Part shown: positions 4,002 through 15,079 of the stretch, piece after piece
Layout of the letters: each line of letters starts with the position of its first letter
Numbering within the stretch: the stretch's first letter is position 1
NCBI GenBank assembly: GCA_050257835.1
Contig: JBLMXP010000102.1
Span: 1-51,324 of the forward strand
Length of the DNA stretch: 51,324 nt
Source of the DNA: Planctomycetaceae bacterium
GTDB taxonomy: Bacteria; Actinomycetota; UBA4738; HRBIN12
Direction of reading: 5' to 3'
Made by a program: the position numbers and the translations under genes
The notes under the pieces: model-generated
What the model was told of the DNA's origin: nothing
The model's input: only the letters and a program-made list of their open reading frames with translations
Database searches by the model: none

Positions 4002-4709
4002 TCAGCCGGCCGCAGCGCGGTCGGCGACTGGGCGCAGCATCCAGCGGTAGCCGATCCCCGGCTCGGTCACGATCGCCCGCGGTCTGCGCGGATCCGGCTC
4101 GATCTTGTGCCGGAGCTGGCTCACGAACACGCGGAGCACCTCAACGTCCTGTGCGTAGGGATCGCCCCACACCTTCTCGAGCAACCAGCGATGGGTGAGC
4201 AGCTTGCCCGAAGCGCCGACGAAGGCCTCCAGGAGCGCCCACTCGGTCCTCGTGAGGTGCACGTCGGCGCCGTCGCGACTGACGCGATGCTCGCCGAGGT
4301 CGATCAGCACGTCCCCAGCGCGGAACCGCGGCGGGGACGATCCCGCGGGCTCGGCCCGCCGCAGGAGCGCGCGCACGCGCGCCAGGAACTCCCCCACCCC
4401 GAAGGGCTTCGTCAGGTAGTCGTCGGCGCCGAGGTCGAGCGCGGCGATCTTGTCCGGCTCCTCCTCCCGCACCGACAGCACCAGCACCGGCACGGCGCTC
4501 CACGAGCGCAGCCGACGGCACACCTCCAGCCCGTCCATCACCGGCATGTTCAGGTCGAGGACCACGAGGTCGGGCGCCGCGGTCGCGACCCGATCGAGCC
4601 CTTCGGCGCCATCGGCCGCCGTGTCGACCTCGTACCCGCGCGCGGCCAGCGCGCGTTCCAGCGCGACGCGGATGTGCGCCTCGTCGTCGATCACGAGGAC
4701 CCGCGTCAT
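4002..4709 (-). CDS. kdpE: OmpR-family response regulator KdpE
   Basis: Starts at MTRVLVIDDE (the upstream part of the 324-aa ORF is Arg/Gly-rich junk). Receiver motifs are VVLDLNMP and TKPF; the winged-helix C-terminus has LTRTEWALLEAF and GIGYRW. The ATGA overlap with the upstream kinase stop (4706..4709) indicates translational coupling. Confidence 0.88.
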   Translation of the reverse strand: MTRVLVIDDEAHIRVALERALAARGYEVDTAADGAEGLDRVATAAPDLVVLDLNMPVMDGLEVCRRLRSWSAVPVLVLSVREEEPDKIAALDLGADDYLTKPFGVGEFLARVRALLRRAEPAGSSPPRFRAGDVLIDLGEHRVSRDGADVHLTRTEWALLEAFVGASGKLLTHRWLLEKVWGDPYAQDVEVLRVFVSQLRHKIEPDPRRPRAIVTEPGIGYRWMLRPVADRAAAG

Positions 4710-6184
4710 CCCGACCCCTTGGGCAGCGTGCAGACGAACGTCGCGCCCCCGCCGGGTGTGTCTTCGACCCAGAGGCTCCCGCCCATCAAGTCGACGAACC
4801 CCTTCGAGATCGCGAGCCCCAGCCCCGGGCCCAGGTGCGGCGTGCGCTCCGAGAGCCGGTAGAAGGCCGTGAACAGCTGCTCCCGCGCCTTCGCTTCGAT
4901 CCCCGGGCCGTGGTCTACGACCCGCACCGACGGGTCGGCCCCCTGGCGCCCGACGACGACCTCGACCTCGCGGCACGCGGCCGTCTCGGCGGCGCGGGCG
5001 GCGTTGTCGAGCAGGTTCGAGAGCACCCGGTCGAGGAACACGGGGTCGGCGGTCGCGGTCGCGGGATCTTCACCGATCTCTGCAACGAACGTCACCCCCG
5101 GCCATCTGCGCTCGACGTGGTCGAGCTCGCCGAGCACGATCTCGGCCAGGTCCACGACCTCCGGGCGGGCACGCAAGACGCCCGCCTCGATCCTCGACAT
5201 GTCGAGCAGGTTCGCCACCAAGGCGTCGAGCCGATCGGTCTCCGCGTCGATCGTGCGGAGCACGTCGTCGCGTTGCCCGTCTCCCCGGGCGACCTCGGGA
5301 TCCAACAGGTCCGTCACCGACGCCTTGATCGCGGCCAGCGGGCTCCGCAGGTCGTGCGACACCGCGGCGAGCAGGCTCCGTCGCACCGCGTCGGTCTGAC
5401 GCAGGACCTCGGCAGCGGTCGCGGCGCGCAGCAGCCGGTCGCGTTCGAGGACCAGGGCGAGCTGGTCGCACACGGCGCGCAGCACGCGGCCCTCGGCGTC
5501 CGTCAGCGGGTCGCGGTCGCCCGTGAGCACGATCAGGCCGAGGGTCCGGTTGCCGACCGTGAGCGGCAGGCGCTCGGGCGCGGCTCCGGGCGCCGACGGG
5601 TCCCACGTCGCCGAGAGCGGCCCTTCACCGATCCTGATCCGTTCCACCAGCGTCCCATCGTCGGCACGCTCGAACAGGCCGCCCGACGCGTATCCGAACG
5701 TCGCCACGAGCCGCTCGAGCAGGCTGCGGTAGGTCTCCTCCCCGGGCCCCCGGACGACGAGGTCGCGGCTCAGCTCCTGCAGCGTCCGAAGCTCGGCCTC
5801 CCGCGCCTCCGCCGCGTCCGCGCGGTCGGCGGCGTTGGCGACCAGGACCGACACGAGGACCGACAGCCCGAGGAAGACGAACAGCGCGAAGACGTCCTCC
5901 GCCGCGCCGATCGCGAACGTCCCGTAGGGCGGCAGGAACAGGAAGTTGAACGAGAGGAACGCGACGACCGATGCGACGATACCCGGGCCGAACCGGCCGA
6001 TCGCGGCGGTGATCACCACGAGCACGAGGAAGAAGAACCCCACCGTCTGGGGTCGCACGACGGTGCGCAGCGGGAGCAGCGCGAGGCCGAACACGACCGG
6101 GCCCACGACGCCGATCAAGTAGCCGACCGTGCGACGACGCGTCGCCGCGGGTTCTCGAACCAGGCGGAACATCCGGGTGCCCAC
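4706..6184 (-). CDS. kdpD: KdpD-type sensor histidine kinase lacking the N-terminal KdpD/Usp domains
   Basis: 492-aa ORF. It has a DUF4118-like TM block (FFFLVLVVITAAIGRFGPGIVASVVAFLSFNFLFLPPYG), a GAF-like region, an H-box SHDLRSPLAAI, and NLLDNAARA, DHGPGI, GLGLAISKG. It is coupled to kdpE and divergent from kdpF. The start could be M1 or M5. Confidence 0.88.
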   Translation of the reverse strand: MGTRMFRLVREPAATRRRTVGYLIGVVGPVVFGLALLPLRTVVRPQTVGFFFLVLVVITAAIGRFGPGIVASVVAFLSFNFLFLPPYGTFAIGAAEDVFALFVFLGLSVLVSVLVANAADRADAAEAREAELRTLQELSRDLVVRGPGEETYRSLLERLVATFGYASGGLFERADDGTLVERIRIGEGPLSATWDPSAPGAAPERLPLTVGNRTLGLIVLTGDRDPLTDAEGRVLRAVCDQLALVLERDRLLRAATAAEVLRQTDAVRRSLLAAVSHDLRSPLAAIKASVTDLLDPEVARGDGQRDDVLRTIDAETDRLDALVANLLDMSRIEAGVLRARPEVVDLAEIVLGELDHVERRWPGVTFVAEIGEDPATATADPVFLDRVLSNLLDNAARAAETAACREVEVVVGRQGADPSVRVVDHGPGIEAKAREQLFTAFYRLSERTPHLGPGLGLAISKGFVDLMGGSLWVEDTPGGGATFVCTLPKGSG

Positions 6185-6331: not shown

Positions 6332-6415
6332 GTGACGGACCTGATGATGATCGCGCTCACGGTCGTGACGTTCCTCGCGATCGGGCTGTTCGTCGTCGCG
6401 ATGGACCGGGTGTGA
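6332..6415 (+). CDS. 27-aa hydrophobic peptide upstream of and overlapping kdpF (candidate extra Kdp small subunit or leader peptide)
   Basis: The GTG at 6332 lies 8 nt after GGAGGTGAG. Every codon ends in G or C. The product VTDLMMIALTVVTFLAIGLFVVAMDRV is a single TM helix. Its TGA overlaps the kdpF GTG (GTGA at 6412..6415). Confidence 0.45.
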   Translation: MTDLMMIALTVVTFLAIGLFVVAMDRV

Positions 6416-6501
6416 CGACCGCCGACGTCCTCGAGCTGATCGTCTCGGTCGCGCTGCTCGTGTACCTAACGGTCGCGCTGCTCCGTCCGGAGCGGTTCTG
6501 A
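6412..6501 (+). CDS. kdpF: K+-transporting ATPase subunit F
   Basis: 29 aa, VTTADVLELIVSVALLVYLTVALLRPERF. This is a typical KdpF: a single TM, an aromatic residue mid-helix and a C-terminal (P)E(R/K)F. It ends 1 nt before the kdpA ATG. It is too small for the ORF track. Confidence 0.8.
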   Translation: MTTADVLELIVSVALLVYLTVALLRPERF

Positions 6502-6502
6502 G

Positions 6503-8173
6503 ATGGCCACCGTCTTGGCCCTGCTCGTCCTGATCGTCGCCCTGACGCCGCCGCTCGGCGCCTACATGTACCGGGTCTACACGGCGGAGCGGATCGGACG
6601 CGCGGAGGGCCTGCTGTACCGGCTGATCGGCGTCAACCCGGCGACCGAGCAGAGCTGGAAGCGCTACGCGAGCTGTGTCGTGTGGTTCAGCGCGATCTCG
6701 ATGCTGCTGACCTACGCGGTCCTGCGGCTGCAGGCGCACCTCCCGCTCGACCCCACCGGGGTGCCGGCGGTCGGCACGAACGTCGCCTTCAACACCGCGG
6801 CCAGCTTCGCGTCCAACACGAACTGGCAGACCTACGGGGGCGAGACGACGATGAGCTACCTGAGCCAGATGCTCGGGCTCACGTTCCAGAACTTCGTCTC
6901 GGCCGCCGTCGGCATGGCGGTGCTGGTCGCGACGATCCGCGGCTTCGTGCGCTCGCGCGGCGAGGGCCTCGGCAACTTCTGGCGCGACCTGGTGCGCACG
7001 GTCGTGTACATCCTCCTGCCGCTCGCGGCCCTCGTCGCCCTGCTCCTCATCGCCCAGGGCGTCGTGCAGACCTTCGCGGGCTCCGTCGTGGTCAGGGGGA
7101 TCCAGGGGTTCGAGCAGACGATCGCCCGCGGTCCGGTCGCGTCGCAGGTCGCGATCAAACAGCTCGGCACGAACGGCGGGGGGTTCTTCAACGTGAACTC
7201 CGCGCACCCGTTCGAAGGCGGCACGCCGCTCGCGGACTTCCTCGAGCTCGTCTCGATCCTGCTGATCCCCGCCGCCCTGACCTACACCTTCGGCAAGATG
7301 GTCGGCAACGTCCGCCAGGGCTGGGCGCTGTTCGCGGCGATGCTGGTGCTCTTCCTCGCCGGCCTCGCCGTCACGGTCCCCCAGGAGCACACGGCGACCC
7401 AGGCGATGCAGACGGCGGGCGTCGCCGCGGCCCAGCCGAACCTGGAGGGCAAGGAGGTCCGCTACGGACCGGACCTCTCGGGGACCTGGGCGGTCGCCAC
7501 CACGGCCGCATCCAACGGCTCGGTCGACTCGATGCACGACTCATACCAGCCGCTCGCGATGGTCGTGCCGGTGTTCAACATCGCGGTCGGCGAGATCGTG
7601 TTCGGCGGCGTCGGCAGCGGCCTGTACGGGATGCTCTTCTACGTCGTGATCGCCGTGTTCATCGGCGGCCTGATGGTGGGGCGCACGCCCGAGTACCTGG
7701 GCAAGAAGATCGGCGCCCGTCAGGTCAAGATCTCCGCGATCGCGGTGCTGGTGCCGTTCCTGCTGGCGCTCGCGATGACGGCGGTGGCCGTGGTGACCCC
7801 CGCCGGCCTGTCGGCACGGCTCAACGACGGACCGCACGGCTTCACCGAGATCCTCTACGCCTTCTCGTCGATGGGGAACAACAACGGCTCGGCGTTCGCG
7901 GGTCTGACGGCGACCGGCGCGCTCTACTCGGTCGGCGGCGGGGTGCTGATGCTCGCCGCGAGGTTCGTCCCGTTGATCGCCGCGCTGGCCCTCGGAGGTT
8001 CGCTCGTCGTGGAGGGCGTGGTTCCCGAGACCGAGGGCACGCTGCCGACCGATCGGCCGTTGTTCGTGGGTCTGCTGGACGGCGTGATCGTCGTGATCGG
8101 CGCCCTCACCTTCTTCCCGGCCCTCGCGCTCGGGCTGATCGTGGAGGGTCTGACCAAGGGGGTGACACGATGA
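6503..8173 (+). CDS. kdpA: K+-transporting ATPase subunit A
   Basis: 556-aa polytopic protein. KdpA blocks include [29 protein letters not shown] and [11 protein letters not shown]. Confidence 0.95.
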
Positions 8174-10242
8174 CCACGGTGCAGGCGCCGCCGATCGCGC
8201 CCCCGCAGGAGCCCCACGGCGCCGTCAAGGCCAGGCCGCTGTTCGACCCGCCGATCGTCCGGCGCGCGGTGCTCGACAGCATCCTGAAGCTGAACCCCCG
8301 CACGCTCATGAAGAACCCCGTGATCTTCGTGGTCGAGGTCGTCTCGGTCATGGTCACGGTCCGGATCGTCGCCGACGCCCTCGGCGGCGGTCCGGTCGCC
8401 TTCGAGGCGGCGATCGCCGCAGGGTTGTGGTTCACGGTCCTGTTCGCGAACTTCGCGGAGGCGATGGCCGAGGGCCGCGGCAAGGCGCAGGCCGACGCCC
8501 TGCGCAGGACCCGGGCCGACCTCGTCGCGCGCCGGATCGGACCCGACGGCGAAGAGACCGTCGCGGCGTCCGAGCTGCGGGCGGGCGACCTCGTGATGAT
8601 CGCGGCGGGCGAGCTGATCCCCGGCGACGGTGAGATCGAGGAGGGCATCGCGTCGGTGGACGAGTCGGCGATCACCGGGGAGTCGGCGCCCGTGATCCGC
8701 GAGTCGGGCGGCGATCGCTCGGCCGTGACCGGCGGGACGAAGGTGCTGTCGGACTGGATCAAGGTTCGGATCACGGCCGATCCGGGGCAGTCCTTCCTCG
8801 ACCGGATGATCTCCCTGGTCGAGGGGGCCGAGCGCCAGAAGACCCCCAACGAGATCGCGCTGTCGATCCTGCTCGCGAAGTTCACGATCATCTTCCTGAT
8901 CGTCTGCGTGGCCCTGCAGCCGTTCGCGATCTACGCGGGCGGTCGCGTGTCCGACGCGGTGCTGATCGCGCTGTTCGTGTGCCTGATCCCGACCACGATC
9001 GGCGGCCTGCTCTCCGCGATCGGGATCGCCGGGATGGACCGGCTCGTCCAGCACAACGTGCTCGCGATGAGCGGGCGCGCCGTCGAGGCGGCCGGCGACG
9101 TCTCCACGCTCCTGCTCGACAAGACGGGGACGATCACCCTGGGCAACCGGCAGGCGGTCGCCCTCGTGCCGGCCCCCGGCATCGAGGAGCGCGAGCTCGC
9201 CGAGGTCGCGCAGCTGGCCTCGCTCGCCGACGAAACCCCCGAGGGACGTTCGATCGTGATCCTCGCGAAGGAGCGCCACGGGATCCGCGGCCGCGAGCTG
9301 ATGGAGACGCACGCGCGTTTCGTCCCGTTCACCGCGCAGACACGGATGAGCGGCGTCGACCTCGACGGGACTGAGATCCGCAAGGGCGCCGTGGACTCCG
9401 TGCTGGCCTGGTCCGGGCGCGAGATGCCGGCGCCGCTCGCCGAGGAGGTCGAGCGCATCGCGCGTGGCGGCGGGACCCCGCTCGCGGTGGGGCGCGACCG
9501 CGAGCTCCTCGGCGTGATCGAGCTGAAGGACGTGATCAAGGAGGGCCTGCGCGACCGCTTCGACCAGCTGCGCGCGATGGGGATCCGCACCGTGATGATC
9601 ACCGGCGACAACGTCCTGACCGCCGCGGCGATCGCGCAGGAGTCCGGGGTCGACGACTTCCTCGCCGAGGCCACCCCCGAGACGAAGATGGCGCTGATCA
9701 AGCGCGAGCAGGAGGGCGGCAAGCTCGTCGCCATGACCGGGGACGGCACGAACGACGCCCCCGCCCTCGCGCAGGCCGACGTCGGCGTGGCGATGAACAC
9801 GGGCACCACCGCCGCGAAGGAGGCCGGCAACATGGTCGACCTCGACTCCAACCCCACGAAGCTGATGGAGATCGTCGAGATCGGCAAGCAGCTGCTGATC
9901 ACCCGCGGTGCCCTCACCACGTTCTCGATCGCGAACGACGTCGCGAAGTACTTCGCGATCATCCCCGCGATGTTCGTGACGACGTTCCCGGTGCTCGACC
10001 GGCTGAACGTCATGCACCTGCGGACCCCCGAGTCGGCGATCCTGTCCGCGGTGATCTTCAACGCCGTGATCATCGTGTTGCTCGTCCCCCTCGCGCTGCG
10101 CGGCGTGGCGTACCGGCCCCTGGGCGCTGCCGCGCTACTCCGTCGCAACCTGCTGATCTACGGCCTCGGCGGCCTGATCGCGCCGTTCGTCGGCATCAAG
10201 CTGATCGACCTGCTGCTCGCGGCCGTCCACTTCCCGAGGTGA
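8170..10242 (+). CDS. kdpB: K+-transporting P-type ATPase subunit B
   Basis: The ATG at 8170 overlaps the kdpA stop (ATGA). P-type motifs are DKTGTIT, MITGDN and [11 protein letters not shown]. The 6682..8169 extension of the ORF is out-of-frame overlap with kdpA. Confidence 0.95.
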
Positions 10243-10832
10243 TGACATTGAAGACCGCCGTCCGCGCGCTGCTCGCCACGATCGTCCTGGCCGCGATCAC
10301 CGGGCTGCTGTACCCGCTGGCGATGACCGGCGTGGCGCAGGTCGCCTTCGGAACGAAGGCGAACGGCTCGTTGGTCGACGTGCACGGCCGCCCCGCCGGC
10401 AGCGCGATGATCGGGCAGGCCTGGAGCGGACCGGACTGGTTCCACGGCCGGCCCTCCGCGGACGGCTACGACGCGAGCGCCTCGGCCGGCTCGAACCTCG
10501 GCCCGACCTCCGCGACCCTGTCCGAGGAGATCCACCAGCGGATCGCCGCGGTCCTGAAGCGGGAAGGCCCGTACCAGCCGGGGCTGACCGCGGCAGACGT
10601 CCCCGCGGACCTCGTCACCGCCTCGGCGAGCGGGCTCGACCCGGACATCTCGGTCGCCTCCGCCCTGCTGCAGGCGCCGCGGATCGCCGCCGTCCGGGGG
10701 ATCGCCCTGGCGCAGGTCCGGCAGCTGATCGACGCGCACACGTCGAGCAAGGAGCTCGGGTTCCTCGGGGAGCTGCGCGTGAACGTGCTCGAGCTGAACC
10801 TCGCCCTCGAACAGATGGCCCCGCGGGGATGA
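10239..10832 (+). CDS. kdpC: K+-transporting ATPase subunit C
   Basis: 197 aa with an N-terminal TM anchor and the [10 protein letters not shown] motif. ATGA overlap with the kdpB stop. Confidence 0.93.
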
Positions 10833-11164
10833 TGGCGATGACCCAGGCCCGGACCGTGCTCGTGGTGGGCCGGAAGGCAGCCTCGGTGCCGGAGCTCAAC
10901 GGCACCTTGCTGTTCGGCGCGGGGATCTGCATCCTGACGATCGGGTGGCCCGTCACCGCGGTGCAATCCGCGCTCGTCGAGCGCGCGATCGACGCGGCTC
11001 GCGACGCCCGGGTGCCCGTCGAAGCGATCCTCGTCACGTCCGACATGCGCGCAACGGATCATCTACGTACCGATGACGACGTCCGCGTGGTCGCGCCACG
11101 CCGCGAGAGCATGCGGCTCGCGCGGGCCCTCGCCGCCGTCGGCATCGACGCCCGGCCGCTCTGA
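10829..11164 (+). CDS. Hypothetical 111-aa soluble protein translationally coupled to kdpC
   Basis: ATGA overlap with the kdpC stop. About 90% of codons end in G/C, matching the genome's coding bias. The alternating beta/alpha-like pattern is TVLVVGRK .. AVQSALVERAIDAARDA .. VEAILVTSD .. VRVVAP .. MRLARALAAVGI. I recognise no family. Confidence 0.6.
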   Translation: MMAMTQARTVLVVGRKAASVPELNGTLLFGAGICILTIGWPVTAVQSALVERAIDAARDARVPVEAILVTSDMRATDHLRTDDDVRVVAPRRESMRLARALAAVGIDARPL

Positions 11165-11176
11165 GGCTCCCCCCGC

Positions 11177-12370
11177 TCAGCGCTCGCGATGCGCGATCAC
11201 GTGGATGTCGGTGTTCGCCGCCCTGCGGATCAACTCGTTGACGAAGGAGCCGCGGAGCATCTCCTTCCAGCGCGAGCGCAGCGGCTCCCCAACCACGATC
11301 TGCGTGACGAACTGACGGTAAGCGAATCCCAGCACGGCCTCGACCGCGTCGTCCGCATCGATCACGTGCAGCTCCCCGCCGAGCGCGTCCGCGAGCTGCC
11401 GGATCGTCTCGAGCCAAGCCTCCTTCGGCTCCGCGCCCTCGCGGACGTGGACCACGAGGAGGTCGCCACGGGCCCGCTGCGAGATGCGCGCCCCCCGACG
11501 GACGAGATCCTCGGAGAAGTCGGGATGCGAGACGCAGATCAGCACCCGCTCGCGGGTCTCCGGCACCTTCCCCTTCGTCCAGCGGGACAGGAGCGTCTCG
11601 TCGACCTGGTTCGCGACCCGCATCAGGGCCAGCTCGCGCAGCGCCGTCAGGTTCTCGGTCGTGAAGAAGCGCTGCAGCGCCAGCTCGGCCTTGCGCTGGT
11701 CGGGATAGACGTTGCCGTGCAGCATCCGCCGGCGGAGCGCGTAGGGCGACATGTCGACCAGCTCGATCTGATCGGCGAGGTCGACGAGCCAATCCGGCAC
11801 GGTCTCCCGCTGGCGGATCCCGGTCGCGTCGGCGACGACGTCGTTGAGGCTCTCGAGGTGCTGCACGTTGACCGTCGTGATGACCTCGATCCCGTCGGCG
11901 AGCAGGTCGAGGACGTCCTCCCACCGCTTCGCGTGCGCGCCGCCGGGGACGTTCGTGTGCGCCAGCTCGTCGATCAGCGCCACCTCGGGCTGGAGGGCGC
12001 GGACCCCGTCGGTGTCGAGCTCGGGGAACTCCGTGCCGCGGTAGGCGCGCCTCGCGGGCGGCACCACCTCGAGCCCTTCGAGCATCGCGATCGTCTGCGG
12101 ACGTCCGTAGGTCTCGACGCAGCCGACCACGACCCGCGCGCCCCGTCCGGCACGGCGGCGCCCTTCCGACAGCATCGCGTAGGTCTTGCCGACCCCCGGC
12201 GCGGCGCCGAGGTAGACGCGCAGCGGCGCGTGCTTGGCCGCGAGCGCCGTGTCGCGGTTCCAGGCCCGCGCCCCCGCCGGCTCGGGCACGACGCTGCGCC
12301 CGACGAGCGACTCGACCGACTCCGAGCCGCTGGGGTACGTCTCCGGAGGCACCTGCGGCGCCTGGCTCAT
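11177..12370 (-). CDS. Stand-alone KdpD N-terminal sensor domain plus Usp domain protein (no membrane or kinase part)
   Basis: 397 aa. It has a Walker A GAAPGVGKT, and KdpD N-domain blocks ALIDELAHTN, RWEDVLDLLADGIEVITTVNVQHLESLND, MSPYALRRRM and FFTTENLTALRELALM. A Usp-like segment follows (RVLICVSHPDFSEDLVRRGARISQRARGDLLVVHV). It ends without TM helices or an H-box. Confidence 0.9.
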   Translation of the reverse strand: MSQAPQVPPETYPSGSESVESLVGRSVVPEPAGARAWNRDTALAAKHAPLRVYLGAAPGVGKTYAMLSEGRRRAGRGARVVVGCVETYGRPQTIAMLEGLEVVPPARRAYRGTEFPELDTDGVRALQPEVALIDELAHTNVPGGAHAKRWEDVLDLLADGIEVITTVNVQHLESLNDVVADATGIRQRETVPDWLVDLADQIELVDMSPYALRRRMLHGNVYPDQRKAELALQRFFTTENLTALRELALMRVANQVDETLLSRWTKGKVPETRERVLICVSHPDFSEDLVRRGARISQRARGDLLVVHVREGAEPKEAWLETIRQLADALGGELHVIDADDAVEAVLGFAYRQFVTQIVVGEPLRSRWKEMLRGSFVNELIRRAANTDIHVIAHRER

Positions 12371-12390: not shown

Positions 12391-12750
12391 CTAGCCCGTG
12401 AACTCCAGCCGAGGGTTGATCATCTGGATCGCGTTCTTCTGCTCGGAGAGCAACCCTTCGACGACGACCCGGGTCCCCAGTCCGAGGCCGCGGATCGCCC
12501 GGCGCCCCATGAACCGCACGACGACCTCGCCGGTGCCGTCAGACACGACCGCCTCGAGCGACTCGTTGTCCTGCAGCGGGAACACCGTGAGCCGGCGGAT
12601 CACCCCGGCGATGCGCACCTGCTCGCGCAACGGGGCGCGGCCGATCCGCACCGACCCCGGCACGGTCTCGGCCCATTCGCGGATCTCGGCGTTCAGGCGC
12701 GCTTCGTCGGACTCGGTCAACCGGTCGAAGAACCGACGGAGCGCCCCCAT
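12391..12750 (-). CDS. Small OB-fold domain protein (actinobacterial family usually seen next to trkA/ceoBC)
   Basis: 119 aa. The pattern VRIAGVIRRLTV .. LEAVVSDGTGEVVVRFMGRRAIRGLGLGTRVVVEG .. NPRLEF matches my recollection of the mycobacterial Rv2694c-type OB-fold protein. Spacers to both neighbours are 20-25 nt. Confidence 0.72.
   Translation of the reverse strand: MGALRRFFDRLTESDEARLNAEIREWAETVPGSVRIGRAPLREQVRIAGVIRRLTVFPLQDNESLEAVVSDGTGEVVVRFMGRRAIRGLGLGTRVVVEGLLSEQKNAIQMINPRLEFTG

Positions 12751-12775: not shown

Positions 12776-15079
<2,304 letters not shown>

Follow-up and report, generated by a model that had tools for sequence, protein, structure and literature searches.

A conserved orphan protein encoded directly after kdpC, a possible adaptor of the KdpD N-terminal kinase in uncultured actinobacteria

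Which protein is made from a small open reading frame (ORF) whose start overlaps the stop codon of kdpC, and does it serve the potassium pump KdpFABC or the kinase that restrains this pump? The question is raised by a 51,324-nucleotide stretch (assembly GCA_050257835.1, contig JBLMXP010000102.1, positions 1 to 51,324, forward strand; hereafter, the window) from a genome deposited as Planctomycetaceae bacterium and placed by GTDB in the Actinomycetota (UBA4738; HRBIN12), in which kdpFABC is followed by a 111-codon ORF. We use X as a working name for the encoded protein, the copy of the window being P0001. KdpFABC and KdpDE are among the best-studied bacterial transport and signalling systems, and the serine-kinase role of the N-terminal domain of KdpD (KdpD-N) was recognised only in 2024. 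According to Silberberg et al. 2024 (PMC11018627), this domain acts in E. coli and Deinococcus as an atypical serine kinase, which shuts KdpFABC down by phosphorylating the serine of the KdpB TGES motif. Our analysis indicated that X is a genuine conserved gene under purifying selection, and its association with both kdpC and KdpD-N suggests, at about even chances, that it acts as a cytoplasmic adaptor or modulator of this kinase.

The genomic position of X provided the first part of the answer. X was located directly 3′ of kdpC in all 30 loci obtained from the family search, in the inspected loci from other families and another class, and on six metagenome contigs that are independent of each other and carry separate gene calls; at every locus inspected, its position was exclusively kdpC-adjacent. 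The kdpC stop and the X start overlapped as NTGA (with an ATG or GTG start) in 25 of 29 loci and by a single nucleotide (TGATG, TAGTG) in 2 more, the window showing the ATGA form of translational coupling. Alternative in-frame ATG codons are present at 10832 and 10838 besides the one at 10829, and a public gene call (P0006) starts X at 10838, giving 108 aa. In six relatives, the overlapping GTG in the −1 register was the sole possible start, so that the coupled start is the conserved one. X lies on the same strand as the pump genes, without a gap and with a conserved position after kdpC, and is best explained as the last gene of the kdpFABC operon, probably made in step with the pump through start/stop coupling.

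The reality of the gene was supported by its codon composition, its substitution pattern, its conservation at the protein level, and a confident predicted structure. The GC fractions of X at codon positions 1, 2, and 3 were 0.73, 0.52, and 0.89, with neighbouring genes alike, and this coding-like pattern was confined to its own frame and repeated in ten orthologous loci. The ratio of nonsynonymous to synonymous substitution rates (dN/dS) was below 1 in all 15 pairwise comparisons of orthologues (0.17–0.53; 0.17–0.28 for the closest pairs). Alignments of 13, 27, and 62 sequences from at least 13 genera were almost gapless, with lengths of 101–115 aa and the conserved motifs R-x-V-x-V-L-G-R, L-x-x-G-(Y/W)-P-V-(T/S)-x-x-Q, D-A-x-L-V, D-x-V, and R-E-x-R-R. 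No membrane segment was predicted in X, the hydrophobic stretch of which corresponds to the second β strand. The initial annotation, made from the DNA alone, had described a soluble 111-aa ORF with clean coding bias, its start overlapping the kdpC stop as ATGA and a KdpD N-domain gene converging on it from downstream; each of these points was confirmed (Table 1), and both the ORF and its frame proved to be conserved downstream of kdpC in relatives. Its broader proposal of an additional, translationally coupled product of the Kdp operon, serving as a pump accessory or regulatory factor, is well supported by the synteny, the conserved overlap, and the KdpD-N fusions described below.

The AlphaFold2 model of X, built from the 62-sequence alignment (predicted local distance difference test [pLDDT], 87; predicted template modelling score [pTM], 0.81), showed a β-loop-β-α-β-α-β-α-β topology. 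In the X part of a relative, modelled within a fusion protein (pLDDT, 92–97), a helix replaces the loop after the first strand, giving a regular Rossmann-like β-α repeat, and we are confident that the predicted fold is a small Rossmann-like α/β domain. The family had been unfamiliar at the outset, and it matched nothing named: Pfam and NCBIfam scans returned no match, the best hit of a sequence profile search against PDB (HU; E-value, 0.077) was meaningless, and Foldseek returned nothing from PDB at E ≤ 0.001, its list mixing Rossmann-like, HUP (LarE, PPAT, Usp), and CARF folds at template modelling (TM) scores of at most 0.57. Specific families were also considered and rejected. A KTN/RCK domain (TrkA_N, PF02254) is contradicted by the presence of GxGxxG in only 1 of 62 members, the lack of any TrkA_N match, and the lack of KTN structures among the top Foldseek matches. 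A phosphatase of the low-molecular-weight or HAD type, which could have erased the KdpB phosphoserine, is contradicted by the absence of CX5R from all 62 members and the occurrence of DxDx[TV] in only 4, at places that are not conserved. The Walker A motif was likewise absent from the 62 members. No Kdp model of Pfam or NCBIfam matched X, which argues against a canonical pump subunit (KdpF, KdpA, KdpB, or KdpC), and an apparent KdpC-X fusion (P0096) was a frameshifted read of the kdpC 3′ end.

The link to the kinase came from gene fusions. KdpD is split into two genes in the window since KdpD-N/Usp and the membrane histidine kinase are encoded separately; the window KdpD-N keeps the Walker A (GAAPGVGKT) and Walker B (LIDE) motifs, and the window KdpB keeps TGES. 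Among the representatives of 130 X clusters, we identified proteins in which X, a linker, KdpD-N, and Usp (Pfam KdpD and Usp domains) are joined in frame, X forming the N-terminal domain in one clade of its family. Three fusions were full length (P0134, P0215, and P0216; 551, 552, and 562 aa), their X parts being 51–71% identical, and partial sequences carried the same arrangement (P0119, P0125, and P0207). The fusion frame was uninterrupted in three genomes, one from the genus of the window (G001) and two from two other families (G242 and G290), and the fusion has been kept over a long divergence. At fused loci, KdpD-N points in the same direction as kdpFABC and the stop codon that usually closes X is absent, so that ribosomes initiating at X must read on through the kinase; free kinase could additionally come from an in-frame ATG where KdpD-N usually begins. 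The window itself is unfused, X having its own stop and KdpD-N lying on the opposite strand. The linker between X and KdpD-N is disordered and spans approximately 60–90 residues; in the AlphaFold2 model of the 551-aa P0134, the X, KdpD-N, and Usp domains were confident and linker residues 115–172 had a pLDDT of approximately 30. Three further candidates (P0098, P0116, and P0210) were rejected as fusions, their kinase parts being co-directional and out of frame, through either sequencing errors or separate genes.

A second feature of the kinase distinguished the split-type loci. Both stand-alone and fused KdpD-N proteins of this type carry an N-terminal extension of approximately 45 residues that is predicted to be disordered. 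The peptide [ST]ES[VI]E[AS]LxG[RH] was found in 36 of 40 distinct KdpD-N N-termini (SESVESLVGR in the window, within the extension encoded at 12236–12370 on the minus strand), and in the fusions the disordered linker leads into it. It was absent from all 10 canonical full-length KdpD proteins examined (9 from the same family and that of G496, a genome of another class), which start right at the Walker A strand. This peptide resembles a short linear docking motif and may be a candidate docking site for X. Silberberg et al. 2024 (PMC11018627) reported that a short Deinococcus KdpD/Usp protein is stimulated by cyclic di-AMP (c-di-AMP). A search of 182 genomes of the class of the window (at least 85% complete) revealed no diadenylate cyclase (DAC, PF02457), and controls including Corynebacterium were detected. 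Because no DAC was found, the c-di-AMP input for short KdpD/Usp kinases is apparently unavailable in this class.

Collectively, the synthesis of X with the pump (position and coupling), its fusion to KdpD-N/Usp, its lack of catalytic and nucleotide motifs, and its flexible tether led us to read X as a cytoplasmic protein that takes part in KdpFABC control by adapting or modulating the KdpD-N serine kinase. We give this reading about half of our belief, and nearly all of the remainder is divided among a pump-side accessory unrelated to the kinase, a ligand sensor, and a very divergent Usp-like scaffold. As the last kdpFABC operon gene in an uncultured soil actinobacterial lineage, X would be synthesised alongside the pump subunits via start/stop coupling to kdpC, would work together with the soluble KdpD-N/Usp protein, and would act by protein-protein contact, coupling or gating the kinase with regard either to the pump or to the membrane-bound histidine kinase; we consider catalysis by X less likely. 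X may bind KdpD-N, possibly via the N-terminal peptide, and the presumed outcome would be control of KdpB phosphorylation or of Kdp signalling. In a more specific proposal, which we consider unlikely as it stands, X would be a post-translational regulator of a P-type ATPase, produced stoichiometrically with the pump, that docks on the KdpD-N peptide, gates phosphorylation of the KdpB TGES serine, and replaces the c-di-AMP input in a class lacking DAC, for example by keeping the kinase away from freshly synthesised pumps under K+ starvation. X bears on how kinase-only KdpD/Usp proteins sense K+ status besides c-di-AMP, and the presence of a dedicated domain, either co-made with the pump or tethered to the kinase, in a lineage without a detectable c-di-AMP cyclase suggests that the inhibition circuit has a further, new component.

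Several observations weigh against the adaptor reading. Among relatives, X was 31–65% identical to the window copy versus 58–71% for KdpC and 64–81% for KdpD-N, and it evolves faster than the neighbouring genes. The AlphaFold2 model of P0134 (pTM, 0.48; shallow kinase alignment) predicted no fixed docking of X on KdpD-N/Usp. In the X-domain tree, 10 of 11 fused or co-directional forms fell on one side, and because these forms group together, the fusion may be a single evolutionary fusion or fission event; multiple independent fusions, which would have been stronger Rosetta-stone evidence, were rejected since the tree is compatible with one origin. The family of the window has two kinds of kdp operon, a split-KdpD kind with X and a canonical kdpFABC-kdpD(full length)-kdpE kind without it, the kdpC of the latter being only 43–53% identical to that of the window (L042–L055; G186, G198, G209, G212, and others). 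This contrast itself speaks for a link between X and the separate KdpD-N, but the correspondence is not strict. G085 has a split-type locus without X, with a gap of 24 bp between kdpC and KdpD-N, and the X copy of G002 looks degenerate, so that X is an accessory, dispensable in some lineages. G496 carries X after kdpC together with divergent full-length kdpDE, the KdpD lacking the N-terminal motif. A strict correlation of X with split KdpD was rejected because of G496 and G085, and a strict correlation with DAC absence was rejected because X coexists with a DAC gene in G496, so that X is not a simple c-di-AMP substitute.

Of the alternatives, the best placed is that X is a pump-side assembly factor or a KdpB-binding cytoplasmic subunit that is independent of KdpD-N, the fusion being one incidental event between neighbours. 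The sole invariant association of X is indeed with kdpC rather than KdpD-N, which lies 6–14 kb away in G225, G226, and G268 and is part of a divergent full-length protein in G496; its coupling to kdpC implies that X and the pump are made in stoichiometric amounts; and the X tree allows one fusion origin. However, the fusion was retained across deep divergence, as indicated by the 51–71% identity among the X parts of the three full-length fusions and by long tree branches, canonical kdpFABCDE pumps of the same family manage without X, and X is lost or degenerate at some loci with intact pump genes. We regard this alternative as unlikely, though worth keeping in view.

A ligand-sensing role is a doubtful second alternative. 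Rossmann-like folds usually bind ligands at the C-terminal ends of their strands, and in the predicted model of X, the conserved G14-R15, G-(Y/W)-P-V-T-x-x-Q, and R92/R95/R96 occupy loops and the beginnings of helices. X might use a basic pocket along the C-terminal edge of its sheet to bind a nucleotide, a second messenger, or another anion and feed K+ or osmotic status to the KdpD-N kinase in a lineage without c-di-AMP. The lack of DAC domains in the class, together with the reliance of short KdpD/Usp kinases on c-di-AMP described in PMC11018627, is consistent with such a sensor. Set against this are the lack of any known nucleotide-binding motif in the 62 members, the lack of a fold match to a specific ligand-binding family, the co-occurrence of X and a DAC gene in G496, and the X-less canonical kdpFABCDE operons within the same DAC-less family.

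E. coli UspC scaffolds KdpD through the Usp domain, and KdpQ of Halobacterium is a Usp-family protein acting on transcription. X might by comparison be a Usp/HUP-type domain that has diverged very far and partners the KdpD-N Usp domain as a UspC-like scaffold, a possibility that we consider improbable. A small nucleotide-binding fold of the HUP/Usp kind had been suggested at first from the β-α-β rhythm of the sequence; the Rossmann-like β-α-β architecture stood, and membership of the Usp/HUP group was not supported. Usp was the commonest weak Pfam match among X relatives, with sub-threshold matches to PF00582 in 4 of 62 (best E, 0.0017), and the Usp structures 5ahw and 1q77 appeared in the Foldseek list with E-values of 0.28–0.45 and TM scores of approximately 0.5. 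In Halobacterium, kdpQ follows kdpC in a kdpFABCQ cluster and is described as a "positive auto-regulator" of Kdp (PMC8303175, PMC7002104), which also favours this alternative. P0001, however, had no Usp profile match at E ≤ 1, hhalign of X against 38 KdpD Usp domains gave a probability of 0.6%, no fold match passed the Foldseek threshold given above, and the ATP motif G-x2-G-x9-G[ST] was present in 0 of 62 members. X is also shorter than Usp (approximately 105 aa with four or five strands versus approximately 140 aa). Finally, a chance frame or a functionless, decaying remnant is very improbable: long spurious open frames are common in the window (71% GC), and G002 carries a degenerate X and G085 none, but the coding-like composition of this frame only, the dN/dS values, the motifs and length conserved across the order and beyond, and the confident predicted fold all argue otherwise.

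To delimit the family, X was searched for in protein and genome collections. In a word-indexed search covering 5.8 billion proteins, the single sequence returned 4 matches and a profile returned 88 protein clusters (90% identity), all unnamed or "hypothetical" and from Actinomycetota metagenome bins. An exhaustive HMMER search of 1.84 billion representatives yielded the 130 clusters at 50% identity, with proteins of approximately 100–115 aa apart from the longer fused forms. In species-representative genomes, X was found in approximately 45 of 223 genomes of the family of the window (13 of 33 genera), in five genomes from three other families of the same order, and in 1 (G496) of approximately 370 searched genomes from other classes of the phylum. 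A narrow X alignment retrieved five related loci from the Microflora Danica metagenome-assembled genomes, and P0001 alone retrieved none. X is thus rare and narrowly distributed, and its approximately 130 clusters (50% identity) make up a new domain family that is a candidate for domain databases and for annotation naming. By comparison, kdpC was present in 70 of the 223 family genomes, and all 15 kdpC-bearing genomes of the genus of the window also had X. Two kdpC-X copies were present in G053, and two kdpC genes in G202. In two split-type loci (L044, G121:C7; L050, G119), kdpC is followed on the same strand by the first 250–260 residues of a DUF4118-type kinase, with neither X nor KdpD-N nearby.

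The features of the window around X are collected in Table 1. The pump genes are tightly packed, with a gap of 1 nt between kdpF and kdpA and overlaps of 4 nt at the kdpA/kdpB, kdpB/kdpC, and kdpC/X junctions. A 27-codon hydrophobic ORF (VTDLMMIALTVVTFLAIGLFVVAMDRV) at 6332–6415 precedes kdpF and overlaps its start by GTGA. The slot between kdpC and KdpD-N is occupied by the Rossmann-like X rather than the OB-fold protein. The kdpFABC-X operon and the hppA/OB-fold/KdpD-N operon are convergent, with 12 nt (11165–11176) between the X and KdpD-N stops in the window and 3′ ends overlapping by up to approximately 20 nt in several relatives. No terminator-like hairpin was found between X and the convergent KdpD-N gene, and this lack, together with the close convergence, suggests that, when the pump operon is strongly induced, antisense transcription could extend into the inhibiting kinase gene. 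No promoter-like site was found within 10600–11700, one terminator-like hairpin was located inside X at 10885–10906 (shuffled sequences averaged 0.1 per region), and no unusual RNA structure was found around the convergent gene ends (z = 0.16). On metagenome contigs of several relatives (L098–L101 and L088), KdpD-N is followed by two TrkA genes (TrkA_N + TrkA_C) and an AA_permease_2 gene (KimA-like), which stand in place of the OB-fold and pyrophosphatase genes of the window. The locus is a potassium-homeostasis supercluster with variable outer parts.

Table 1. Coordinates of X and of the surrounding kdp features in the window
Feature	Coordinates	Strand	Description	Basis
kdpE-type response regulator	4002..4709	-	Response_reg + Trans_reg_C; start overlaps the kinase stop	
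Histidine-kinase half of split KdpD	4706..6184	-	Membrane DUF4118, GAF-like, HisKA, HATPase_c; divergent from kdpF	
kdpF	6412..6501	+	29 aa, C-terminus LLRPERF	Read from sequence; Potass_KdpF called at the same place in relatives
kdpA	6503..8173	+		
kdpB	8170..10242	+	P-type ATPase; TGES residues 169-172, DKTGT residue 317	
kdpC	10239..10832	+		Pfam KdpC E = 2e-68; NCBIfam kdpC equivalog above cut-off
kdpC stop/X start overlap	10829..10832	+	ATGA, translational coupling	Sequence
X	10829..11164	+	111-aa cytoplasmic protein, orphan family, predicted Rossmann-like α/β fold	
KdpD-N + Usp	11177..12370	-	Stand-alone, no kinase core	PF02702 E = 2e-84; NF038185 "KdpD-like non-kinase" below cut-off
OB-fold protein	12391..12750	-	Upstream of and co-oriented with KdpD-N; position kept in relatives	
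hppA	12776..15079	-	H+-pyrophosphatase-like membrane protein	Named from reading the translation only

How far does this arrangement depart from known Kdp systems? Literature searches found no paper on such a gene after kdpC in Actinobacteria. The closest known arrangement is the split KdpD catalogued by Silberberg et al. 2024 (PMC11018627), in which a KdpD-N/Usp kinase is separate from a transmembrane/GAF/DHpCA histidine kinase. The window matches the description of this type in having KdpD-N/Usp as a free-standing protein that keeps Walker A and B motifs, a separate DUF4118-GAF-HisKA-HATPase kinase with kdpE, and a KdpB with TGES. It differs from that description in having the extra domain X of 105–112 aa, either coupled to kdpC or fused N-terminally to KdpD-N/Usp, in the lineage-specific N-terminal peptide motif of the kinase, and in belonging to a class without a detectable diadenylate cyclase. 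Usp proteins such as E. coli UspC are similarly small α/β proteins of Rossmann-like topology linked to the N-terminal region of KdpD, whereas X has no significant sequence, profile, or fold match to them and lacks their ATP motif. Like X, KdpQ of Halobacterium salinarum is encoded by an extra soluble-protein gene directly after kdpC and is tied to Kdp regulation (PMC8303175, PMC7002104); it is archaeal, however, and X is no recognisable Usp. With split KdpD and a regulator gene after kdpC (kdpQ) already known, X represents a new protein family and, very probably, a new accessory within an established system.

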